From IMG/VR virus record IMGVR_UViG_3300027901_000001: 64,000 nucleotides of DNA, one strand, 5' to 3'. Below are positions 51,421 to 62,349 of this stretch, one piece after another. A model generated the notes under the pieces. That model searched no databases, had not been told where the DNA came from, and saw nothing but the letters and a program-made list of their open reading frames with translations. The translations under genes were made by a program, and so were the position numbers. This DNA comes from a virus. Position 1 is the stretch's first letter. The number at the start of each line of letters is the position of its first letter.

Positions 51421-51497
51421 CGGCACGGGCGGCTGGGGTCGAACCAACACCAACTCGGGTCAAAGCCGAGCGCCTCTACCAATTGGGCTACGCCCGT
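51421..51497 (-). tRNA. trnQ: tRNA-Gln(UUG)
   Basis: Cloverleaf; loop CTTTGAC. Confidence 0.92.
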
Positions 51498-51498
51498 G

Positions 51499-51575
51499 TA
51501 GCACTCCCACAGGGACTCGAACCCCGATTCCCGGCTCCGGAGGCCGGTGCTCTAATCCACTTGAGCTATGGGAGC
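51499..51575 (-). tRNA. trnR: tRNA-Arg(CCG)
   Basis: Cloverleaf; loop CTCCGGA. Confidence 0.92.
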
Positions 51576-51576
51576 C

Positions 51577-51652
51577 TGGCACCCGCGAGAGGACTCGAAC
51601 CTCCAGTGACCGGTTCCGTAGACCGGCGCTCGTCCAATTGAGCTTCGCGGGC
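51577..51652 (-). tRNA. trnR: tRNA-Arg(ACG)
   Basis: Cloverleaf; loop CTACGGA; CCA encoded. Confidence 0.93.
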
Positions 51653-51653
51653 C

Positions 51654-51727
51654 TGGATCGGGTGGCTGGAATCGAACCAGCGTTGACGGCGTCAGAGACC
51701 GTTGCCCTACCACTGGGCCACACCCGA
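51654..51727 (-). tRNA. trnQ: tRNA-Gln(CUG)
   Basis: Cloverleaf; loop CTCTGAC; CCA. Confidence 0.93.
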
Positions 51728-51728
51728 A

Positions 51729-51805
51729 TGGCGTCCCATCCCGGATTTGAACCGGGGTCTCCGGATTGAGGGTCCGACGGCCTGGGCCAGCTAGCCGAAT
51801 GGGAC
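51729..51805 (-). tRNA. trnE: tRNA-Glu(CUC)
   Basis: Cloverleaf; loop CCCTCAA (C33); CCA. Confidence 0.88.
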
Positions 51806-51806
51806 T

Positions 51807-51881
51807 TGGTGCACCTGGTGGGAATCGAACCCTACATCCCCGGCGTGAAAGACCGGTCGCCTACCATTAGCAGACAGGTGC
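51807..51881 (-). tRNA. trnE: tRNA-Glu(UUC)
   Basis: Cloverleaf; loop CTTTCAC; CCA. Confidence 0.92.
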
Positions 51882-51897
51882 AAGGGAGCGTTTCGAG

Positions 51898-51957
51898 TTA
51901 GCGGCGCTGCCGCTCTCGTTCTCGCTCTACCTCGCGCTGTCGTTGCCGTCGGAACAT
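51898..51957 (-). CDS. Leader peptide for the Glu/Gln/Arg tRNA block (MFRRQRQREVERERERQRR)
   Basis: 16 of 19 codons are E/Q/R; all Arg codons are CGN. Confidence 0.85.
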   Translation of the reverse strand: MFRRQRQREVERERERQRR

Positions 51958-51966
51958 GATGCTTTT

Positions 51967-51995
51967 ACCTTGCGGCCGACCGCAGGAATTGTCAA
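51967..51995 (-). promoter_or_regulatory. Sigma70-like promoter ahead of the E/Q/R leader
   Basis: TTGACA-N17-CAAGGT. Confidence 0.5.
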
Positions 51996-52244: not shown

Positions 52245-52378
52245 AGGGAAGCGGGCGTTACCCGCCTGCTGGTCCCTGTCGTGGTGCAGTGGTGGAACCG
52301 ACAGGACTCGAACCTGCAACCTTCTGGCTGCCAGCCAGACGCTCTCCCGAGTTGAGCTACGGACCCAAACACTTTCAT
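52229..52378 (-). promoter_or_regulatory. Thr-sensing leader ORF reading through tRNA-Ala(GGC)
   Basis: ATG 52378 with SD; 50 codons; spacer codons ACC ACG ACA GGG ACC ... ACG; stops inside tRNA-Thr(CGU). Confidence 0.65.
52290..52366 (-). tRNA. trnA: tRNA-Ala(GGC)
   Basis: Cloverleaf; loop CTGGCAG; G3:U70; CCA. Confidence 0.93.
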
Positions 52379-52426
52379 CTCCGTTCCTCTCCGGACATAA
52401 GACGATTTTTTATGTCCGATTATCCT

Positions 52427-52503
52427 CAGTGGACCCGGTGGGATTTGAACCCACGACCCTCTGCTTGCAAGGCAGACGCTCTCCCTGGCTGAGCTACAAG
52501 CCC
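52427..52503 (-). tRNA. trnA: tRNA-Ala(UGC)
   Basis: Cloverleaf; loop CTTGCAA. Confidence 0.9.
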
Positions 52504-52562
52504 ATGTGCCGTTTTACCGGCGTTGTCCTCTTCTATGTCTCCGACCTCCGATTATCCCTCAA

Positions 52563-52598
52563 AAAAAATGCCCCGTTTTTCACCGCGACGGCGGGGCC
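52563..52598 (-). terminator. Rho-independent terminator-like element between tRNA-Val and tRNA-Ala(UGC)
   Basis: GCCCCG ... CGGGGC stem followed by A and an 8-T run on the minus strand. Confidence 0.55.
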
Positions 52599-52638
52599 AC
52601 CCGCCGAAACCAAACCCCGCTGAAAAGCGTGAGTCCGA

Positions 52639-52714
52639 TGGTACGGGGAAGTGGAGTTGAACCACTGGCCTCCTGCTTGTAAGACAGGCGCTCTCCCAGT
52701 TGAGCTATCCCCGC
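52639..52714 (-). tRNA. trnV: tRNA-Val(UAC)
   Basis: Cloverleaf; loop CTTACAA; CCA. Confidence 0.92.
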
Positions 52715-52715
52715 A

Positions 52716-52790
52716 TAGTGCGAGCGCCGGGAATCGAACCCGGATTTCCGCCGTGGCGGGGCGACATGCTGCCGGTTGCATCACACTCGC
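52716..52790 (-). tRNA. trnG: tRNA-Gly(GCC)
   Basis: Cloverleaf; loop CCGCCAC (C33). Confidence 0.88.
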
Positions 52791-52792
52791 AT

Positions 52793-52866
52793 CGGAGAGC
52801 CGGGTGGGAGTCGAACCCAAACCTCGACGGGGTTGCAACCCGCCTCCATCCCGGATGGACCGGCTC
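52793..52866 (-). tRNA. trnC: tRNA-Cys(GCA)
   Basis: Cloverleaf; loop TTGCAAC; U73. Confidence 0.88.
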
Positions 52867-52916
52867 ACAAGTCCGCCCGAGCTTCTACAGAGTGGGTCTG
52901 GTTTGCGTTCGTACAT
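52867..52916 (-). promoter_or_regulatory. Cys leader (MYERKPDPLCRSSGGL...)
   Basis: SD GAGGAG plus ATG; one TGT codon; reads into tRNA-Cys. Confidence 0.5.
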
Positions 52917-52927
52917 GAGAGTCTCCT

Positions 52928-53000
52928 CGGCAGGCCAGGTGGGAATCGAACCCACTACAGTCGGATTTGGAATCCGACCGGCTACCTCAGCCTCTGACCT
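52928..53000 (-). tRNA. trnW: tRNA-Trp(CCA)
   Basis: Cloverleaf; loop TTCCAAA. Confidence 0.88.
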
Positions 53001-53023: not shown

Positions 53024-53146
53024 TTATCGCCAAGCGAGCACGGCCAGAGGCTCCATACCGATCGCGGCAGTCGCCTCCGCACACACGACGGCCGCGCAAC
53101 CAGCGGTTGCTGTCGCGGCGACCAGGGTCGTGTAGCGCATACGCAT
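53024..53146 (-). CDS. Leader peptide for the Trp/Cys/Gly/Val/Ala/Thr tRNA block
   Basis: MRMRYTTLVAATATAGCAAVVCAEATAAIGMEPLAVLAWR; 26 of 40 residues are T/A/V/G/C/W; SD AAGGTGAGG. Confidence 0.8.
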   Translation of the reverse strand: MRMRYTTLVAATATAGCAAVVCAEATAAIGMEPLAVLAWR

Positions 53147-53152
53147 ATCCTC

Positions 53153-53180
53153 ACCTTAAGGGATCTACTGCCGTTGTCAA
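53153..53180 (-). promoter_or_regulatory. Sigma70-like promoter ahead of the W/C/G/V/A/T leader
   Basis: TTGACA-N16-TAAGGT. Confidence 0.6.
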
Positions 53181-53725: not shown

Positions 53726-53812
53726 TAGTACGGGTGAAGGGACTTGCACCCCCACGGCCCGAAGGCCACTGGATCCTTAGTCCAGCGCGTCTGCTGATTC
53801 CGCCACACCCGC
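53726..53812 (-). tRNA. trnL: tRNA-Leu(AAG), rare A34 anticodon
   Basis: Long variable arm; stem CTGGA/TCCAG, loop CTAAGGA. Confidence 0.88.
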
Positions 53813-53854: not shown

Positions 53855-53932
53855 TTACTGGACAGACGGGTGCGCCCGCAGCTCGATTAAAAGCAACGAT
53901 GACAGGGATAGGCTGTGGACGCAGTAAAACAT
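53855..53932 (-). CDS. Leader peptide for the Leu/Ser tRNA block (MFYCVHSLSLSSLLLIELRAHPSVQ)
   Basis: Nine consecutive, all different Leu/Ser codons: AGC CTA TCC CTG TCA TCG TTG CTT TTA; downstream of a promoter-like element. Confidence 0.85.
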   Translation of the reverse strand: MFYCVHSLSLSSLLLIELRAHPSVQ

Positions 53933-53974
53933 GGTTCTTCCGTACTTCGATTCCCGGCGGCACCCCCTCAGAGG

Positions 53975-54002
53975 ATCTTAAGCGTAGAGGGGAAAAAGTC
54001 AA
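53975..54002 (-). promoter_or_regulatory. Sigma70-like promoter ahead of the Leu/Ser leader
   Basis: TTGACT-N16-TAAGAT. Confidence 0.6.
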
Positions 54003-54516: not shown

Positions 54517-55450
54517 ACAGCACTTCGTCCCCCTCACCAACGAACTGGCCCGACAGCAACCTGCTGGCCACCGTCCGCAGGGAGAAGCCGCCCATCTTTT
54601 CGTCCGGCCGGGCAGCCGCCTCAAGCTGGAGTGCCTGGGTTTCGCCAACCACGGTGCTGGTCGTCTCCTGGTCCTTCTCGGTTGCCTCCTTCAGAGCCGC
54701 CTGGAGCCCCTCCAGGGACCGTTCTCCCACGGTAAGGGCCGACCTAGTAGCCGGAGGCAGCGGGTTGCCCTTGGCCACCTGGAGCGACAGGGAGCCGTAG
54801 CACACCCGAATCAGAGGCACCCACAGACGCTCCCAGAAGGCCACGGAGGGAGCGCGCTCGACGCCCACCACCTTGCCGCCTACCAGGATGATGCTGCCCA
54901 CCTGCCGGGGCACCAGCTCGAACTCGGCCACGAACTCATCGAGCTGCTTCTTGAAGTGCCGCAAGAAGTCCGCGATGTTGCCGCTGCCGGACAGGCCCAC
55001 GGACCGCTTGAAAGCGCGGATGAAGGTCCACAGCCGATCGTACTTATCCTCCAGCCGAGTCGCCAGCGCCTGAGCACGCAGCGCCGCCGGAAGGATGATC
55101 ATGCTGCCCTGCTGATCACGGATAAGCCCGCTCTGGGTCTCCTGGATGCAGCACGCCCGGTCCATGTCCCGCTCGCTCTTGGGAGCCATGAGCGCGCCCC
55201 CGCACACCGCGTGGTCCTGAGCCGCGTCCTTCACGCACCAGCCCGCGCCGGGCGACACAATAGAAGGCCGGTCGGCCGTGTTCCGAAGGTGCACGGAACC
55301 GTACTCGTGGGTCGAGGCGTGGAAATCCGGCGGAGCGAACCGATCGTCGTCTTCGTCGCTCAGCAGCGGAATCACCTCCATCTGTCCGACGCTCTGGCGA
55401 GCACCGGTCCTGGTTCCTTTAAGGATCTGTTCTACGGTCAGTGTAGGCAT
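54488..55450 (-). CDS. ARPP/DUF6569-like domain protein
   Basis: 'QSVGQMEVIPL', 'AAQDHAV', 'ACCIQETQSG'; coupled to the vWA gene; family call from memory of the motif pattern. Confidence 0.5.
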   Translation of the reverse strand: MPTLTVEQILKGTRTGARQSVGQMEVIPLLSDEDDDRFAPPDFHASTHEYGSVHLRNTADRPSIVSPGAGWCVKDAAQDHAVCGGALMAPKSERDMDRACCIQETQSGLIRDQQGSMIILPAALRAQALATRLEDKYDRLWTFIRAFKRSVGLSGSGNIADFLRHFKKQLDEFVAEFELVPRQVGSIILVGGKVVGVERAPSVAFWERLWVPLIRVCYGSLSLQVAKGNPLPPATRSALTVGERSLEGLQAALKEATEKDQETTSTVVGETQALQLEAAARPDEKMGGFSLRTVASRLLSGQFVGEGDEVLYASLCLSGK

Positions 55451-57036
55451 TACACACCTCCTCTCCCGAGCACCGGGAGCGCCCTGCCGATCAGGACGTT
55501 GATACCGCGCACCGGATCCGCCTCCAGCATCCCCCGGATGAACGTCAGCCCGATGGACGCCGGATCCTTCACCGGCATGGTGGAAGCCAGCTTGGGAGCC
55601 AGCTCCCGGACACTTCCAACCTCAGCCGCGAAAACCGGGTTGATGTGGTAGACCGGCGTTTCGATGCCGATCTCGCGTGCCTGGCCGAGCACCTCTGCAA
55701 ACCGTCCGGCCGGTCGGTTCTCATACCCATCGCTGAGCACAAAGATAACATCCGGCCCATCGGCCAGCAGCTCCAGGAGTCCCGAGGCCAGCTCGGTATC
55801 TCCGGACGGCCGGGGAGACTCGGCCCCCAGATTACCTCCACGGGTAACCTCAAAGGCGCGCTTCGTGGCTGTCCGCCTCAGCATATCGCGCATGGCCAGC
55901 ACGGCCGCCATCGGCCGCAGCGGCTGGGTCTTGTCCCCGGCCATCGACTTCGAGGCATCCACCAGGATGCCAACGTTCTCGTAGCTCACCGGGAACGCCT
56001 TGGCCGCCTTCCGAGCCTTGGCCAGAAGAGCCTCCTCGATCTCTCCAGTCATGCCCATCTCGAAGGCGTACAGGTAAAGCCGGACCGCATCGTAGTCCTT
56101 CGGATCCATCTCGACCTTGACCCCAGCCTTCTTCGCCTGACGCTGCACCGTCATCTTCTGCTTCTTGCTGAGAGTGCCTTCCTTCGCAGCGTGCTTCAGC
56201 ACCTCATCCTTGGAGACCTCCTGGTGGTAGGTGCTCCGCAGGCCCTCCAGAACCTCCGGCGGCAGTCGACTGCCTTCCGCCAGGTCCTTCTTGGCCGCCT
56301 CCCGAGCCTTGAGCAGGGGGGTCTTCCAGGTCCGCGTGCCACCGAGCACGAAGCACACGTACTCGTACACGTCGGACGGCTTGCCCTGGTGGTACTTGTC
56401 GATGCTGTCGCGGAGAATCTTCTTCTCCTTGTCCGTCCAGGTCCGGGCGCTCCGGCTCAGGATCGTCCGGATCACCGTGGTGCGCTTCTGGCCCCAGGCG
56501 TGGGTCAGGGCCTCGCTCATCTTGCTGCGGTACTTCACGGCCCACCAGTCCAACTTCCTGGAGCTGAGGATGGTCCGCAGCATCAGCTTCCGGGTCCGGG
56601 CGTTGTTGGCCTTCGGCGTCTCCTGGGTGCCCACGCGGAATCCCTGGAAGAGCTTGAACACCATCTGCGGAGGCATCTCGCGCATGTAGTGGTAGAGCAC
56701 CTCGCGCTCCATCTTGGCGTCGAGCAGGCCATCGGTCTGGCTGTTACGCGGGGTACCGAGCAGATTCTTGGTGCCGATCTGCACGGCGCGCTCCATCACG
56801 CCCGGCAGCACCAACAGCAAGGCGTACAGGTCACGGTCGAGCTTCATCATGGCCTGGTGCGCAGCCAGCTCCGCCTTCTGCTGCTCCTGGCGCGTGTTGT
56901 AGTGGGTAGCCCGGCCAAACGAGGTCGAGGCCGTGTCCAGGAAATGGCACACGATCTCCCCCGCCTTCTTCGCAGTCACACGCTGCGGAGGCTTCCACCT
57001 GATTTCATCGCTGTCCCTGGTAACGATGTCCGGCAT
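55450..57036 (-). CDS. TROVE/Ro60-like helical domain plus vWA (MIDAS) protein
   Basis: 528 aa; MIDAS 'VDASKSM' and 'VLSDGYEN'; helical N-terminal two-thirds with 'PPEVLEGL'; size and architecture as in Ro60. Confidence 0.65.
   Translation of the reverse strand: MPDIVTRDSDEIRWKPPQRVTAKKAGEIVCHFLDTASTSFGRATHYNTRQEQQKAELAAHQAMMKLDRDLYALLLVLPGVMERAVQIGTKNLLGTPRNSQTDGLLDAKMEREVLYHYMREMPPQMVFKLFQGFRVGTQETPKANNARTRKLMLRTILSSRKLDWWAVKYRSKMSEALTHAWGQKRTTVIRTILSRSARTWTDKEKKILRDSIDKYHQGKPSDVYEYVCFVLGGTRTWKTPLLKAREAAKKDLAEGSRLPPEVLEGLRSTYHQEVSKDEVLKHAAKEGTLSKKQKMTVQRQAKKAGVKVEMDPKDYDAVRLYLYAFEMGMTGEIEEALLAKARKAAKAFPVSYENVGILVDASKSMAGDKTQPLRPMAAVLAMRDMLRRTATKRAFEVTRGGNLGAESPRPSGDTELASGLLELLADGPDVIFVLSDGYENRPAGRFAEVLGQAREIGIETPVYHINPVFAAEVGSVRELAPKLASTMPVKDPASIGLTFIRGMLEADPVRGINVLIGRALPVLGRGGV
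56261..56274. repeat. 14-bp palindrome, copy 5
   Basis: Exact; inside the TROVE-like gene. Confidence 0.8.
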
Positions 57037-57057
57037 GGTTGTACCTCCAGAAAAATA

Positions 57058-57189
57058 CCGGGGGTAAGTTGCTCGTCATTTGTCTCGCGCCTTTACCAGT
57101 TAGGCCACGCCCCCGCTTGGTGGGGGCGGCAGGACTCGAACCTGCAATCTCGGGATTCCATATCCGAAAATGACGCGACAGTTCCCCGG
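57058..57189 (-). ncRNA. Y-RNA-like RNA with a circularly permuted tRNA-like domain
   Basis: Outer stem CCGGGG/CCCCGG plus GCGUCAUUU/AAAUGACG encloses, in order, a T-arm (GCAGG-TTCGAGT-CCTGC), a loop-closed acceptor stem (CGCCCCC-ACCAAGC-GGGGGCG) and a D-arm (GCC-TAACTGGTAAA-GGC); directly upstream of the TROVE-like gene. Confidence 0.75.
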
Positions 57190-57285: not shown

Positions 57286-57442
57286 TGTTCGTAGCGACCG
57301 GCCTGAGACAGGGGGGTTGTCAGGTTTTTTGAAAGAAAACAGGAATCGGACCTGTACCTTCTGTTGGTAAAACAGACGTGCTACCGTTGCACTATCTCTT
57401 CCGAAACTAGCAACCTAGTTCTCAGGTCCGTCGCTACGAACA
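57286..57442 (-). ncRNA. Long-stem RNA enclosing a degenerate tRNA-like cloverleaf
   Basis: TGTTCGTAGCGAC/GTCGCTACGAACA and CCTGAGA/TCTCAGG stems; the inner 57331..57402 has D-, anticodon-like (TCTGT/ACAGA) and T-like arms with a poor acceptor stem. Confidence 0.6.
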
Positions 57443-57480: not shown

Positions 57481-57508
57481 TTATTAGCCTATGTTTTCCG
57501 TTTGTCAA
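57481..57508 (-). promoter_or_regulatory. Sigma70-like promoter ahead of the Y-like RNA/TROVE-like operon
   Basis: TTGACA-N16-TAATAA(T). Confidence 0.55.
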
Positions 57509-57527: not shown

Positions 57528-57613
57528 TGGCGGAAGGCAGAGGTCCCGACCCTCAGACCCGGAGGCCCCAACGGCTTAGCAGGCCGCGCCTGTCCCCGAC
57601 AGGTTTACCTTCC
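57528..57613 (-). tRNA. trnS: tRNA-Ser(GCU)
   Basis: Long variable arm; loop CTGCTAA; CCA. Confidence 0.87.
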
Positions 57614-57662
57614 CAAGGTTCCTGCTCGGGCGCGTACTGCTCTCTGTTGCTCTGCCTCTCAT
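57614..57662 (-). promoter_or_regulatory. Ser(GCU) leader (MRGRATESSTRPSRNL...)
   Basis: AGC AGT ... AGC and no TCN codons. Confidence 0.7.
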
Positions 57663-57671
57663 CGCTTTCCT

Positions 57672-57745
57672 CGGTGGGTCTGAAGGGAATCGAACCCCTG
57701 TAGTCCGGTTAAGAGCCGGATGCTCGGCCACTGAGCGACAGACCC
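57672..57745 (-). tRNA. trnK: tRNA-Lys(CUU)
   Basis: Cloverleaf; loop CTCTTAA. Confidence 0.92.
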
Positions 57746-57809
57746 TCGCGTGCGCGCACCTCCGCGTGCGCGTGCGCTTGAGCCTGGTCTGTCGATTTAC
57801 CGAAATCAT
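57746..57809 (-). promoter_or_regulatory. Lys(CUU) leader (MISVNRQTRLKR...)
   Basis: SD AGGAG; single Lys codon is AAG; CGACAGACC pairs with the tRNA 5' strand. Confidence 0.65.
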
Positions 57810-57820
57810 CGTGAAACTCC

Positions 57821-57895
57821 TGGTGGGCGCGGTGGGAATCGAACCCACGGATTCCGGGTTAAAAGCCCGGTACCCTGCCATCGGGTGCCACGCCC
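57821..57895 (-). tRNA. trnK: tRNA-Lys(UUU)
   Basis: Cloverleaf; loop CTTTTAA; CCA. Confidence 0.9.
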
Positions 57896-57933
57896 TCGAT
57901 GGGACGCGGCGATCGTTTCAGTCTCCTATTCAT
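57896..57933 (-). promoter_or_regulatory. Lys(UUU) leader (MNRRLKRSPRPI...)
   Basis: Single Lys codon is AAA; GCCGCGTCC pairs with the tRNA 5' GGGCGTGGC. Confidence 0.62.
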
Positions 57934-58008
57934 AGCTCCAGGGGCAGGCGTCGAACCCGCATAGTCTCGGTTAACAGCCGAGCGCCTTACCAGTTAGGCT
58001 ACCCTGGA
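57933..58008 (-). tRNA. trnN: tRNA-Asn(GUU)
   Basis: Cloverleaf; loop CTGTTAA. Confidence 0.92.
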
Positions 58009-58053
58009 AGAACACCGCTGGGGCCGACCGTTGGCCGACCCGGTGGTATTCAT
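58009..58053 (-). promoter_or_regulatory. Asn leader (MNTTGSANGRPQRCS...)
   Basis: AAT and AAC codons. Confidence 0.55.
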
Positions 58054-58058
58054 TCCAG

Positions 58059-58134
58059 TGGCAGGAGTGGAAGGACTCGAACCCTCATCACCGGGGTAGA
58101 AGCCCGGTGCTCTCATCCGTTGAGCTACACTCCC
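58059..58134 (-). tRNA. trnR: tRNA-Arg(UCU)
   Basis: Cloverleaf; loop CTTCTAC; CCA. Confidence 0.92.
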
Positions 58135-58136
58135 TC

Positions 58137-58211
58137 GGGCGGGAGCGGCGGGAGTCGAACCCGCACAGACCAGCTTAGGAGGCCGGTACCCATCCATTAG
58201 GCGTCGCTCCC
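58137..58211 (-). tRNA. trnR: tRNA-Arg(CCU)
   Basis: Cloverleaf; loop CTCCTAA. Confidence 0.88.
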
Positions 58212-58260
58212 AGATGCTGTCCTGGAATCTTCGCCTGTATCTGTGCTCGATCCGTTCCAT
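58212..58260 (-). promoter_or_regulatory. Arg(CCU/UCU) leader (MERIEHRYRRRFQDSI...)
   Basis: CGG AGA AGG CGA AGA; contains both AGG and AGA. Confidence 0.72.
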
Positions 58261-58271
58261 CTTCTTCTTCC

Positions 58272-58348
58272 TGGTAGGCCCGGTCGGATTTGAACCGACG
58301 ACCACGCCCTTATCGGGGGCGTGCTCTACCTATCTGAGCTACGAGCCC
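58272..58348 (-). tRNA. trnI: tRNA-Ile(GAU)
   Basis: Cloverleaf; loop CCGATAA (C33); CCA. Confidence 0.9.
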
Positions 58349-58398
58349 ATCACCCTTGCGCGCCGGTCTCAACCGGCCCGGTAATGAGCACAGCCTGT

Positions 58399-58911
58399 TT
58401 ACGCAACACTCGCATACGTTCTCCTGTTCACAATGTAAGATACGGTGGTCTTTGGAACCCCATACTTCTCCATCAGCTCTTTATACGACATGCCCCGATC
58501 CCGATCTTTTCTCAGGTTTCGCACCTCATCTTCGGAAACCTTGCTTCTAACCCTCCCTGCCTTCCGAGCATCCAAGGTCCTCTTTCTTTTGTCCTTATCT
58601 AACGTGTTCTGAGAATGCGTCCCGATTGCGATGTTCCCTTTGCTATTGTTCAGTGGGTTTCCGTCCAAGTGTCGCGCCTCCACTCCTTCAGCAAACGCAT
58701 CTTCTCCGAACCACTGATAGGCCGCCAACAGATGGACGGCGACATTATATTCTACCCCTTTGTCCTTTATCTTAAATGACAAGTACCCTTTTCTGTCGTC
58801 GTAAAGACTCCTTTTCTTGCCTGACGCTGCTGTTACCTCTCCTGCCTCTGAAACCCTGTATCCTTTACGAAAAGCAATCAACACTGCGGTAATCTTTTTT
58901 GACCGCCTCAT
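58399..58911 (-). CDS. HNH homing endonuclease with C-terminal HTH, inserted in the tRNA array
   Basis: 'VHLLAAY', 'ARHLDGNPLNNSKGNI...THSQN'; AT-rich. Confidence 0.85.
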   Translation of the reverse strand: MRRSKKITAVLIAFRKGYRVSEAGEVTAASGKKRSLYDDRKGYLSFKIKDKGVEYNVAVHLLAAYQWFGEDAFAEGVEARHLDGNPLNNSKGNIAIGTHSQNTLDKDKRKRTLDARKAGRVRSKVSEDEVRNLRKDRDRGMSYKELMEKYGVPKTTVSYIVNRRTYASVA

Positions 58912-58912
58912 T

Positions 58913-58991
58913 TTGCGCTCCGGGGCAGGATCGAACTGCCGACACCTCGGGCTTCAACCGAGTGCTCTACCAACGCCTGAGCTACCGGAGC
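58913..58991 (-). tRNA. trnF: tRNA-Phe(GAA)
   Basis: Cloverleaf; loop TTGAAGC. Confidence 0.9.
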
Positions 58992-59048
58992 AGAATCGCT
59001 ACGGCAGCCCGTAAAGCCCTCATCGTATGTCCTCTTCCTGTCCATCAT
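58992..59048 (-). promoter_or_regulatory. Phe leader (MMDRKRTYDEGFTGCRSDS...)
   Basis: TTT followed by GGCTGCCGTAGC, which pairs 11/12 with the tRNA 5' end; start uncertain. Confidence 0.58.
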
Positions 59049-59053
59049 CTCCT

Positions 59054-59127
59054 CGGTGCGGGCAAAGGGAATCGAACCCATTTCTCCAGGGTGGAAACCT
59101 GGCATCTCACCGTTGGACCGTACCCGC
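59054..59127 (-). tRNA. trnG: tRNA-Gly(UCC)
   Basis: Cloverleaf; loop TTTCCAC. Confidence 0.9.
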
Positions 59128-59165
59128 ATGGCCAGCAGCAGGCTCTCCCTGCACGGTCCCTCCTC
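59128..59165 (-). promoter_or_regulatory. Gly(UCC) leader
   Basis: In-frame GGA GGA GGG ACC GTG CAG GGA; GGACCGTGC pairs with tRNA GTACGGTCC. Confidence 0.62.
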
Positions 59166-59243
59166 CGGTCCACCCGGTCGGACTCGAACCGATCATCGCT
59201 CGCTTATAGGGCGAGTGCTCTACGCAGATTGAGCTACGGGTGG
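59166..59243 (-). tRNA. trnI: tRNA-Ile(UAU), rare anticodon
   Basis: Cloverleaf; stem CTCGC/GCGAG, loop CCTATAA; A73. Confidence 0.85.
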
Positions 59244-59298
59244 TCACCGTAACGGGCGCGACCCGTGCGCCTATCTGCCTATCCGCTCGCCTTGCCAT
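59244..59298 (-). promoter_or_regulatory. Ile(UAU) leader (MARRADRQIGARV...)
   Basis: The only Ile codon is ATA; SD-like GGAGG upstream. Confidence 0.62.
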
Positions 59299-59539
59299 GC
59301 CTCAGTCCCTCCATGTACCACTGGTATTCGTGACCTCTGACCGTTCCTCCGCACTTCTTACAACGATACTGCGCCCTGAAATGTAATCCGTCGTTTTCCT
59401 TTTCAAATTCGTGCGGCCCTTCACACTCCCTGAGCTTCTTGTGGTTGGCCTTCACCTCTTCCCAGATTTGATTGATTTCCTTTTTCTTCAGCCCCGATAC
59501 GTTCGCTAGCGCGTCTAGTGCCTTGTCAACCATGCTCAC
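59279..59539 (-). CDS. Small Zn-finger hypothetical protein
   Basis: C...H.F...Y.CKKCG. Confidence 0.6.
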   Translation of the reverse strand: MSMVDKALDALANVSGLKKKEINQIWEEVKANHKKLRECEGPHEFEKENDGLHFRAQYRCKKCGGTVRGHEYQWYMEGLRHGKASG

Positions 59540-59540
59540 C

Positions 59541-59629
59541 TGGTGCGCCGGGAGGGAATCGAACCCCCATAGCCCGTCAGGACACCTGGGTTACAGCCAG
59601 GCCCCCGTACCAATTCGAGGAACCGACGC
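59541..59629 (-). tRNA. trnY: tRNA-Tyr(GUA)
   Basis: Long variable arm; loop CTGTAAC; CCA. Confidence 0.9.
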
Positions 59630-59691
59630 ATACCGGTTTCCGCCGCCTCTCGCGGCCCGGTATAGCGCCTGTCTGTCCTGCACCCTGTCAT
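59630..59691 (-). promoter_or_regulatory. Tyr leader (MTGCRTDRRYTGPREAAETG...)
   Basis: SD AGGAG; one TAT codon; alternative hairpins. Confidence 0.5.
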
Positions 59692-59721
59692 CGTTTCCAT
59701 CTCCTGTTCCGCAACAAGCAA

Positions 59722-59879
59722 GTAAACCGAGGCAAGGGCTCTCGTTGGTTTTGGCTTTTGAGTTACCCCGGCGATAAAAAAGGCTTGCGCCTAGCGCCGG
59801 GGGCTGGACTCGAACCAGCAACGTTCAGTCTATCAAACTGATACTCTTCCTATAACAACGCGATAGTTCCTCGGTTTAC
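59722..59879 (-). ncRNA. Second Y-RNA-like RNA with permuted T-arm/acceptor domain
   Basis: 11-bp outer stem GTAAACCGAGG/CCTCGGTTTAC, GAACU, CGTTG/CAACG; T-arm GCTGG-TTCGAGT-CCAGC followed by the CCCCGGCG/CGCCGGGG stem. Confidence 0.68.
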
Positions 59880-59907
59880 CTCCTTGCTGCGAGCTGAAAC
59901 AAACAGG

Positions 59908-60034
59908 TGATCTGAGACAGGTTGAACGTCAGTTTTGGTAAAGGGGGTCTGCACGACCTACACGGACTTATGCGTGTCCGTCATTGGTTTTCAGCCAATG
60001 GCATTCCTAGACTGGCGGTACAGTTCTCAGATCA
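59908..60034 (-). ncRNA. GAACU-motif long-stem RNA, paralogue of 57286..57442
   Basis: TGATCTGAGA/TCTCAGATCA stem; shares CTGAGAACT ... CTGAC ... CCTGTCTCAG with 57286..57442. Confidence 0.55.
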
Positions 60035-60058
60035 ACTCTTTCTTCCAACACCTCCTTT

Positions 60059-60136
60059 TGGGCTGGCCGACGGGACTCGAACCCGCAAAAAACACGGCCC
60101 ACAACCGTGTGCCTCGTCCGGCTGGCTCCGACCAGC
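60059..60136 (-). tRNA. trnH: tRNA-His(GUG)
   Basis: 8-bp acceptor stem with G-1:C73; loop TTGTGGG; CCA. Confidence 0.9.
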
Positions 60137-60174
60137 ATAATATGGCCGGAGCCCGTATGTCTTTCGCCCTTCAT
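60137..60174 (-). promoter_or_regulatory. His leader (MKGERHTGSGHI...)
   Basis: Two CAT codons flank GGCTCCGGCCA, which pairs 11 bp with tRNA TGGTCGGAGCC. Confidence 0.75.
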
Positions 60175-60184
60175 CTTCCTTCTC

Positions 60185-60258
60185 CAGCGCCCCGTACGGG
60201 ACTCGAACCCGTCTCATTGGATCGACAGTCCAACTGCATCCCCGATGCACAACGAGGC
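60185..60258 (-). tRNA. trnD: tRNA-Asp(GUC)
   Basis: Cloverleaf; loop CTGTCGA; G73. Confidence 0.87.
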
Positions 60259-60296
60259 ATCAGATCGTCAGCCGGTTCTGTATCTATCCAGGTCAT
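60259..60296 (-). promoter_or_regulatory. Asp leader (MTWIDTEPADDL...)
   Basis: SD AGGAG; GAT, GAC, GAT in 12 codons. Confidence 0.68.
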
Positions 60297-60307
60297 CGTC
60301 TTCTCCT

Positions 60308-60386
60308 TGGTAGCGGGAGCGGGATTTGAACCCGCGATCTTCGGGTTATGAGCCCAACGGGGACGACCAGACTCCCCTATCCCGCA
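60308..60386 (-). tRNA. trnfM: Initiator tRNA-fMet(CAU)
   Basis: GGG/CCC anticodon stem, 1:72 mismatch, loop CTCATAA; CCA. Confidence 0.9.
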
Positions 60387-60394
60387 GCAATCCT

Positions 60395-60471
60395 TGGTCC
60401 GGGCGGTGGGATTTGAACCCACGACTACGTGGTCCCAAGCCACGTGGGCTACCAGCCTGCCCTACACCCGG
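60395..60471 (-). tRNA. trnP: tRNA-Pro(UGG)
   Basis: C1:G72, A73; loop CTTGGGA; CCA. Confidence 0.92.
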
Positions 60472-60537
60472 TCGTGTTAACGGATCCGTGCCCCGAACGC
60501 ACGGTCGACCGGGTTGTGGTGGGTACCAGTAAAACAT
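60472..60537 (-). promoter_or_regulatory. Pro leader (MFYWYPPQPGRP...)
   Basis: SD AGGAGG; CCA CCA, 5 Pro in 22 codons; ACCCGGTCG pairs with CGACCGGGT at the tRNA 5' end. Confidence 0.75.
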
Positions 60538-60757
60538 CTTGCCTTCCTCCTTCTAGCCCACCAGGAACGCAAGATTTCGTGGCGGGCTCTTTATGACCCG
60601 CCTGGATATGGACGGGTCAGAAGCGAAAAATATCACTCCCGTTATGCCTATACATCGGCTTGGGTATGTCTTTTCTGCTTGGCATCTCCGTCTCTTAGGT
60701 GCCCCTCGGGACTCGAACTAATCCGAGCCCGAAGGCCCCGCTCTTTTGAAGGTGATC

Positions 60758-61093
60758 CTATCCGGAAAGATTGTCAAGCGCCCCCCTCAACAAAAGAGGC
60801 AGATTGCTGACGATTCTTCTTGCCGACGATCCGAGTGCCAGTGCAGTGGCTTCATCACCGACATCCGGCTCACGAAAAAGCGACGCCGGGCAGCCGTTCG
60901 CCTGGTCCCGGAGCGCCAGCAGCGCCTTCTCGTCCGGCACCTGGAGGAGCACCAGGTTGTTCGATCCTTCGTACCAGGCGCGGTCCTCTTCGGGGTGCTC
61001 GGCCGAAAAAAGCCGCAGGGCATGGCACGCCTGGGCCGCCTGGAGACCCGGCTTCAGGTCAGCCCGGACCACGATATAGAGCTTTGCATCAAT
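60758..61093 (-). CDS. Peptidyl-tRNA hydrolase, PTH2-like (start codon ambiguous)
   Basis: 'KLYIVVRADLKPGLQAAQACHA', 'LVLLQV' and 'FREPD.G...TALA'; the in-frame region upstream of GTG 61072 has no ATG. Confidence 0.75.
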   Translation of the reverse strand: MDAKLYIVVRADLKPGLQAAQACHALRLFSAEHPEEDRAWYEGSNNLVLLQVPDEKALLALRDQANGCPASLFREPDVGDEATALALGSSARRIVSNLPLLLRGALDNLSG

Positions 61094-61159: not shown

Positions 61160-61245
61160 TGGTCAGCCGGGAGGACTCGAACCCCATACTCCTGACCCGT
61201 ACCGCGAATCGGGGTCAGTTGCTCTACCAGTTGAGCTACCGGCCG
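61160..61245 (-). ncRNA. tRNA-like RNA (Pro-like body) with a 17-nt region in place of the 7-nt anticodon loop
   Basis: Normal acceptor, D and T arms plus CCA; CTGAC-[CCCGATTCGCGGTACGG]-GTCAG. Confidence 0.75.
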
Positions 61246-61355: not shown

Positions 61356-61442
61356 TGGCACGCGGGGATGGACTCGAACCACCGACCTCCGAGCAAGCTC
61401 GGTGCTCTTCCTGGAGCAAAGCTCTCTCTGAGCTACCCGCGT
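61356..61442 (-). ncRNA. tRNA-like RNA with a CUUG tetraloop instead of an anticodon loop and an enlarged D-loop
   Basis: ACGCGGG/CCCGCGT acceptor, G73, CCA; CCGAG-CTTG-CTCGG; 22-nt D-loop containing a GAGC-TTT-GCTC hairpin. Confidence 0.75.
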
Positions 61443-61574: not shown

Positions 61575-61652
61575 CGGCGCGCAGGGTGGGGGTCGAACCC
61601 ACAACCTCCAAGGTCATTACCCTTGGTGCTCGACCAACCGAGCTGCCCGCGC
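61575..61652 (-). ncRNA. tRNA-like RNA with a 9-nt anticodon loop (or 6-bp stem with an AAU loop)
   Basis: CCAAG-[GGTAATGAC]-CTTGG; canonical D and T arms. Confidence 0.72.
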
Positions 61653-62332: not shown

Positions 62333-62349
62333 CCCTCAGAAACTGTCAA
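62322..62349 (-). promoter_or_regulatory. Sigma70-like promoter
   Basis: TTGACA-N16-TATCGT. Confidence 0.5.

Follow-up and report, generated by a model that had tools for sequence, protein, structure and literature searches.

Introduction

Multivalent leader-peptide attenuators are familiar from thrL, the ilvGMEDA leader, trpL, hisL and pheM of pheST. A leader-peptide transcription attenuator has also been described for pheL (PMC3082878). The leaders of ermC and cat act as translational attenuators. The same role has been assigned to the polycysteine leaderless sORFs of mycobacteria (10.1101/834739). Regarding tRNA genes, T-box-controlled examples exist. In addition, the Anabaena trn operon, a tRNA array under TrcR, is expressed under translational stress (PMC10272220). 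It has long been asked why phages carry tRNA arrays, and phage tRNAs have been reported as a counter-defence against anticodon nucleases (PMC10264068; PMC11555353).

Here we describe the analysis of a 64,000-nucleotide stretch of phage DNA (the window) in which a 19-codon ORF rich in Glu, Gln and Arg codons (E/Q/R leader) precedes a block of six tRNA genes. This leader resembles leader-peptide attenuators in that a short ORF is rich in the monitored codons and the position of the ribosome is predicted to set alternative pairings; it differs from them in its inferred control of tRNA genes at the isoacceptor level, in lacking a hairpin plus U-tract terminator, and in having the tRNA itself as the predicted 3′ arm of the switch. 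With the polycysteine sORFs and the ermC and cat leaders it shares a predicted arrangement in which a stalled ribosome blocks a duplex hiding a downstream element, without a terminator, and with the mycobacterial sORFs also a leaderless sensor ORF at the start of the transcript. Unlike these translational attenuators, the phage lock would hide the acceptor/D strand of a tRNA and the RNase P site, not an RBS, and only one leader of the array, that of the Pro block, is predicted to hide a Shine-Dalgarno sequence (SD) as they do. As judged from the models, the phage leader fails the defining output test of transcription attenuators and of the polycysteine-sORF type alike. The likeness to TrcR and T-box tRNA systems would lie in an accessory tRNA array expressed only in translational stress; those systems act on transcription through a labile repressor or a tRNA-binding riboswitch, whereas the phage would use codon-specific ribosome stalling. 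The biological purpose is likely the same as that of the tRNAs counteracting anticodon nucleases, but no sensor or conditional release is described in the abstracts of those reports. The literature searched, which did not cover most subscription journals, gave no example of tRNA genes controlled by a leader peptide, nor did we meet there the variant that our models predict, a ribosome-mediated attenuation with tRNA folding or maturation as its output.

Genomic context of the tRNA array

The window is part of a circular virus contig of 191.6 kb (58% GC) originating from a marine sediment metagenome, and its phage carries T4-like major head, portal and protease genes. No cultured relative of this phage was found, the best capsid match (34%) being also uncultured. 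Homologues of a 528-aa gene neighbouring the tRNA genes occur in Minicystis and in Deltaproteobacteria bins, a weak lead to the phage host. The minus strand of the window carries about 40 tRNA genes between 51.4 and 61.7 kb. Only five TTGAC-type promoters face this array region (that at 62349, like a weak TTGCCT site, is outside it). Four of them stand at the head of a tRNA block with its own inventory leader, that is, an ORF listing codons of the tRNAs behind it. Related arrays, designated L034, L035/L036/L037, L038 and L039, were found via the 528-aa gene, with neighbours 63-82% identical. The array includes anticodons that are unusual in bacteria: Leu-AAG (53728-53812), Ile-UAU (59167-59243) and Ile-AAU (61576-61652), all on the minus strand.

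Codon content of the Glu/Gln/Arg leader

The elements of the Glu/Gln/Arg block are as follows.

51967..51995, minus strand: sigma70-type promoter (pattern scan: TTGACA, 17 nt, CAAGGT; predicted +1 A51960, 3-nt 5′ UTR)
51898..51957, minus strand: 19-codon Glu/Gln/Arg sensor ORF (ATG 51957, TAA end 51898; no SD)
51930..51947, minus strand: predicted anti-tRNA arm, codons 4-10
51886..51927, minus strand: predicted inner lock hairpin (codons 11-19, stop and post-stop spacer)
51807..51881, minus strand: tRNA-Glu(UUC), the first tRNA, predicted to be locked (tRNA gene call and folding)
51422..51805, minus strand: tRNA-Glu(CUC), Gln(CUG), Arg(ACG), Arg(CCG) and Gln(UUG), in tandem with 1-3 nt gaps

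Counting on the minus-strand ORF gave CGA (four), CGC (three), CGG (two), GAG (three), GAA, CAA and CAG (two), the remaining codons being ATG, TTC and GTA; AGA, AGG and CGT are absent. An earlier note on this locus had claimed that 16 of the 19 codons specify Glu, Gln or Arg, that the six tRNAs downstream are Glu-UUC, Glu-CUC, Gln-CUG, Arg-ACG, Arg-CCG and Gln-UUG, and that the two sets match exactly. The first two claims were confirmed, and the third held for the genome of the window, where each of the six tRNAs (51881-51422) has at least one cognate codon in the leader; in L034 and L035 one block tRNA is missing in each. Sixteen of the 18 post-start codons are cognate to the six tRNAs of the block, compared with a fraction of 0.16 in the long ORFs of the genome (P = 2.6 × 10−11), and the corresponding values for the tRNAs of the three remaining blocks are only 0/18, 1/18 and 1/18. 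The note had also pointed to the lack of AGA and AGG in this leader and to the location of Arg-CCU and Arg-UCU in the other cluster, behind a leader with those codons. Both observations held, the second one corresponding to an SD-led ORF at 58260 with AGA, AGG and AGA. The lack of AGR is weak evidence on its own, since AGR makes up only 21% of the Arg codons of the genome and the chance of finding none among nine is P ~0.12. The use of CGA, at 8% genome-wide vs four of nine in the leader, is more telling.

The distance from the −10 element to the ATG is 9 nt in the window, L034 and L035, and TTGACA and an A at the 7th position of this gap are also kept in the two homologues. Given the lack of an SD and the position of the ATG 9 nt past the −10 element, the message is nearly leaderless. 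Translation of the leader, which is enriched in codons of the tRNAs it would monitor, is inferred from the conserved start and, in the sister leaders, from open frames. A spacer of 16 nt separates the stop codon from the first tRNA in the transcript.

Conservation of codons in homologous leaders

The leader, its promoter spacing and the block are retained in L034 and L035, and in L038 the leader is retained up to the contig end. The register of these repetitive peptides was set manually; automatic protein alignment misregistered them. Among the leaders of the window, L034 and L035, 11 of 12 shared codons are identical, as are 6/6 shared Arg codons, compared with 7 of 37 invariant Arg residues with the same codon in all three in two neighbouring protein genes used as control (P ~5 × 10−5). 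A fourth leader variant, from the source run, keeps the codons, and its shorter post-stop spacer still pairs; this variant is less certain, having been rebuilt from the difference tables of a 440-nt, depth-4 contig. The L034 block is devoid of Gln-UUG and CAA is still in its leader; the L035 block is devoid of Arg-CCG, its Glu-UUC gene lacks the anticodon arm, and CGG and GAA are still present. Further E/Q/R leaders were not recovered: pattern scans gave chance matches or none, and the leader-peptide search gave L034 only.

The tRNA-Glu-like gene of L035 (L035:12107-12166), located directly under the E/Q/R lock, lacks the whole anticodon arm and keeps the acceptor, D and T arms and the CCA.

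An alternative explanation for the codon content is that a functional helical peptide of basic/acidic character is made from the ORF, or that the match with the tRNAs arose by chance. The E/R/Q composition is like that of a charged single helix, and the sequence is of low complexity. On the contrary, residues and length change while codons stay identical, which makes a functional peptide unlikely, and both the probability of the match (3 × 10−11) and its replication across the array argue against chance. We consider this alternative very unlikely and largely refuted. The earlier note had proposed that the codon choice reflects sensing and not peptide function, and that a conserved peptide with free synonymous variation would refute it; checked across the window, L034 and L035, no such variation was found, and the proposal is supported by fixed codons together with variable N-terminal residues and length. 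Codon conservation alone cannot separate sensing from structure, because RNA pairing also constrains those nucleotides; both can be separated because the four leaders are block-specific and read-through frames are open, as described below. Altogether, the E/Q/R leader is very likely a real, conserved codon-sensing leader.

Predicted RNA lock on tRNA-Glu(UUC)

Codons 4-19, the spacer and nt 1-13 of tRNA-Glu(UUC) were predicted to fold as one long hairpin, with −40, −41 and −37 kcal/mol in the three phages. Its anti-tRNA arm pairs with nt 1-13 of the tRNA and the 4 nt before it (the MFE and centroid structures coincide), and the same arm is predicted in L034 and L035. The sequence of the post-stop spacer differs among the four variants, and it pairs with E/R codons in all of them. 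When 14 nt of the tRNA were included, z values were −4.1, −4.5 and −4.1 in the three phages, no shuffle being equally stable, whereas the leader without the tRNA was unremarkable (z −1.1). Since the stability is exceptional only with tRNA nucleotides included, it is the tRNA that completes the hairpin.

In the folding model with the full tRNA present, the probability of the acceptor stem of tRNA-Glu(UUC) was 0.01 without a ribosome. Placing the A site of a ribosome on codons 4-17, with its footprint masked, resulted in values of mostly 0.7-1.0 in the window and L034; near codons 11-13 the values dipped, depending on the size of the modelled footprint. Codons 2-3 are non-cognate in the homologues, and an A site placed there did not release the tRNA. 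The lock hairpin and the cloverleaf are predicted (prediction only) to be mutually exclusive structures set by the position of the ribosome. The lock is favoured by only ~3-5 kcal/mol, and the model omits tertiary structure and modifications. Pairing of the leader near the cleavage site is known as a strong anti-determinant of RNase P, capable of slowing it by orders of magnitude (PMC10731613). As the stop codon sits within the hairpin, a terminating ribosome partly keeps it open. Discrimination must come from dwell time; by inference, this agrees better with an irreversible cut by RNase P than with intrinsic termination.

Regarding other possible outputs, no T-box features (stem I specifier loop, antiterminator bulge) were found, Rfam matches in the window being tRNA only, and RBS sequestration of a protein gene is not supported, with no ORF after the E/Q/R leader and tRNA nt 1-13 as the target. 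Transcription attenuation of the whole block remains possible but is rather unlikely. According to it, the hairpin would trigger Rho-dependent termination or intrinsic termination at a degenerate U-tract, the pairing of the tRNA 5′ end being merely the way in which the hairpin is built. In its favour, the inventory of six tRNAs implies polar control, and in more distant relatives, with capsids 49-77% identical, inventory leaders precede terminator-like hairpins, of which some have poor U-tracts. Furthermore, the leader and lock persist in L035 over an armless first tRNA, so the switch must matter there for the downstream genes. Against it, none of the four block leaders, that of the E/Q/R block included, is followed by a U-tract terminator in the window or its homologues, despite the existence of canonical terminators in the genome (81 vs 39 in the shuffle); an intrinsic terminator at the spacer would not discriminate, since ribosomes stalled mid-ORF or at the stop both block the hairpin; there is, as a weak argument, no evident C-over-G skew in the exposed part of the first tRNA (C 23, G 24) resembling the rut sites of Rho-dependent attenuators of the tnaC and mgtL type; and the serial single-tRNA locks described below are left unexplained. 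Rho termination is compatible with our preferred explanation and may be its last step.

Sister leaders and single-tRNA locks

The remaining leaders of the array are as follows.

53024..53180, minus strand: Trp/Cys/Gly/Val/Ala/Thr block leader (promoter 53180; 40 codons, covers 9/9 tRNAs)
53855..54002, minus strand: Leu/Ser block leader (promoter 54002; 25 codons, covers 7/7 tRNAs)
60617..60777, minus strand: Pro-to-Ser(GCU) block leader (promoter 60777; 22 codons, covers 15/15 tRNAs, 19/21 cognate)
57528..60537, minus strand: second-tier, single-tRNA mini-leaders for Pro, Asp, His, Tyr, Ile-UAU, Gly-UCC, Phe, Ile-GAU, Arg-AGR, Asn, Lys (two) and Ser-GCU
52245..52928, minus strand: second-tier Cys mini-leader (52916) and Thr mini-leader (cognate-codon and pairing scans)

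Each block leader covers all tRNAs of its own block (6/6, 7/7, 9/9 and 15/15, all 37 block tRNAs), without enrichment for those of other blocks, and these inventories are conserved in homologues. Two Ser genes of the Leu/Ser block, at ~53632-53459, were missed by ARAGORN with default settings. The Trp-block leader has an 11-bp anti-tRNA-Trp arm beside its TGG codon, and the acceptor-stem probability of tRNA-Trp went from 0.00 to 0.68-0.98 with a modelled ribosome. In the Leu/Ser and Pro-block leaders the first tRNA is not switched at equilibrium in the folding model, and the codon lists sit in segments that do not pair with any tRNA. For the Pro-block leader (60685), the prediction is that a ribosome arriving at its stop codon causes the SD of the following mini-ORF, the Pro mini-leader, to be hidden, which might give ordinary polarity if the model is correct.

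These data bear on a second alternative, in which gating is restricted to tRNA-Glu(UUC) and tRNAs 2-6 are expressed constitutively, the Gln and Arg codons being largely a by-product of complementarity to the 5′ end of tRNA-Glu and the spacer. Complementarity to the tRNA 5′ end dictates part of codons 4-8, no polar mechanism was found, and codons persist where the matching tRNA of a homologue is absent. On the other hand, the other two frames of the leader are not E/Q/R-rich, the three other block leaders list all their own tRNAs, with the Leu/Ser and Pro lists in segments unpaired with tRNA, and the leader is intact in L035, where the first tRNA is armless. We regard this alternative as unlikely.

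In the mini-leaders of 57528..60537 the cognate codon lies 22-48 nt 5′ of the tRNA, mostly with an anti-tRNA arm, and there are no internal promoters. An in-frame cognate codon, in most cases 22-48 nt before the tRNA and next to an anti-tRNA arm, was present in 57 of 61 single-tRNA units from five phages, compared with 29 ± 4.7 by label permutation (maximum 46 in 20,000); in the window only, the result was 14/15 units (p = 2 × 10−5). This last figure is the conservative one, because orthologous units are not independent and pooled p-values overstate certainty. Single-tRNA leaders paired best with their own tRNA among all phage tRNAs in 32/72 units, and more strongly with their own tRNA than with its orthologue from a relative in 52/72 (Wilcoxon p = 9 × 10−5); the mini-leaders follow sequence changes in the 5′ end of their own tRNA between phages. 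The mean acceptor-stem probability was 0.88 for the tRNA alone, 0.09 with the leader, 0.41 with a shuffled leader and 0.58 with a ribosome at the cognate codon, about one third of the units not being rescued by the modelled ribosome. The cognate frame was open through the upstream tRNA gene in 18/18 cases vs 9/36 for other frames, suggesting real translation; the Thr mini-leader ORF, for instance, starts at 52378 and passes through tRNA-Ala(GGC) to ACC ACG ACA. Thirteen locks are arranged in series behind one promoter, and these cannot each be terminators, so the output is likely post-transcriptional.

Several particular features were observed within the array. Neither the Ser-GCU leader (57614-57672) nor the Asp leader (60259-60307), both on the minus strand, pairs well with the 5′ end of its tRNA; judged by eye, the pairing is with the 3′ acceptor strand or the anticodon arm, with the sensing codon opposite its own anticodon. 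An HNH gene (58399-58911, minus strand) is inserted between tRNA-Phe and tRNA-Ile(GAU). In L035 and L038 the ATT sensor codon is reached via read-through of tRNA-Phe; in the window its translation is restored by a new, overlapping start at 58415. An insertion at 52504-52638 (minus strand), absent from homologues, carries a U-tract terminator (~52568) and a possible antiterminator; it is situated midway through the Trp-Thr block and is not followed by a promoter, and a second terminator-like site occurs at 59781. A small hairpin between two Thr tRNAs (52092-52075), a 14-bp palindrome, was not treated as a terminator.

A model for ribosome-dependent release of tRNAs

The best explanation for these results is a ribosome-dwell sensor gating tRNA supply, to which we assign a probability of roughly 0.62 on the basis of folding models, with no RNA or ribosome data. 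As seen in the sequence, the promoter yields a near-leaderless RNA with the 19-codon ORF, the 16-nt spacer and six tRNAs. The ribosome-free ORF is predicted, in a conserved manner, to fold onto the spacer and nt 1-13 of tRNA-Glu(UUC), which would leave neither acceptor stem nor RNase P substrate; a ribosome whose A site lies on codons 4-17 is predicted to mask the arm so that the cloverleaf forms. We infer that when charged Glu, Gln and Arg(CGN) tRNAs are plentiful the ribosome would be gone in a second or two and the lock would re-form, and that if any such tRNA were cleaved or uncharged the ribosome would dwell long enough for the irreversible RNase P cut. The weakest step, also inferred, is a polar effect by which the locked state would silence tRNAs 2-6. 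Its most likely basis would be either factor-dependent termination by Rho or decay of a precursor left naked and misfolded. Repeated across the array in two tiers, the same logic would have block leaders act as OR gates over the codons of the block, and single-tRNA locks as specific gates, the putative purpose being to replace host-destroyed or depleted tRNAs without otherwise unbalancing the pool.

The E/Q/R leader lists six tRNAs and, in the models, locks only the first. The induction of the whole block implied by the earlier note is not borne out so far, as the only visible switch acts on the first tRNA and is not a transcription terminator. Block-wide control is nevertheless suggested by the complete list, by the L035 leader kept over an armless tRNA and by the inventory leaders with terminator-like hairpins of more distant relatives. 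The models lead us to favour, by a modest margin, maturation of tRNA-Glu as the direct output together with some block-wide effect. Domino misfolding, in which the freed 3′ part of one tRNA would spoil the next, was not supported (0.40 vs 0.45 in control pairs), and equilibrium folding of the whole block was uninformative, tandem tRNAs mispairing even without the leader.

As most phage tRNA genes have a leader, their tRNAs are probably released only under shortage, although there are no expression data. A bolder reading, which could equally prove right or wrong, is that almost every phage tRNA is pre-locked and matures only when ribosomes stall on its own codon. Evenly balanced too is the view that the output of this attenuation is RNA folding and RNase P processing, not termination or initiation, allowing codon-by-codon repair. 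If true, tRNA maturation gated by ribosome speed would be a third attenuation output beside termination and initiation, the replacement of what the host destroys or depletes would become testable codon by codon as the reason for phage tRNA arrays, the leader inventories would reveal the shortages that the phage expects, and the lock would provide a compact part for self-balancing tRNA supply.

Neighbouring elements and distant relatives

The 528-aa gene (55450-57036, minus strand) had no Pfam hit, and its top 11 Foldseek rows were all Ro60/TROVE (TM 0.33-0.43). It is preceded by a YrlA-like permuted tRNA-like RNA (57055-57189, minus strand; E 8 × 10−4, below the family cut-off) and followed by an ARPP-domain gene; the Ro60-fold gene and the YrlA-like RNA are located between the two tRNA clusters. 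A Pth2-family peptidyl-tRNA hydrolase gene (60758-61072, minus strand) precedes the array, just upstream of the promoter of the largest block. From context only, it is possible that the Ro60-fold/YrlA-like pair and Pth2 handle misfolded precursors and dropped peptidyl-tRNA.

An AU-rich tRNA-like element (57330-57402, minus strand) has its own promoter at 57508. Its called identity is Val in the window and Ala, Ile or Pro in homologues, so that a role in decoding is improbable. The window further includes another permuted tRNA-like RNA, the second one found, and two tRNA-like genes whose anticodon arms are abnormal (59755-59850, 61163-61245 and 61356-61442, minus strand). Among the distant relatives, inventory leader peptides followed by terminator-like hairpins were located in L048 (upstream of 810 and 2711) and in L040 and L047 (upstream of tRNA-Tyr). 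These relatives are mostly devoid of single-tRNA locks; L040 has one on Lys-UUU.
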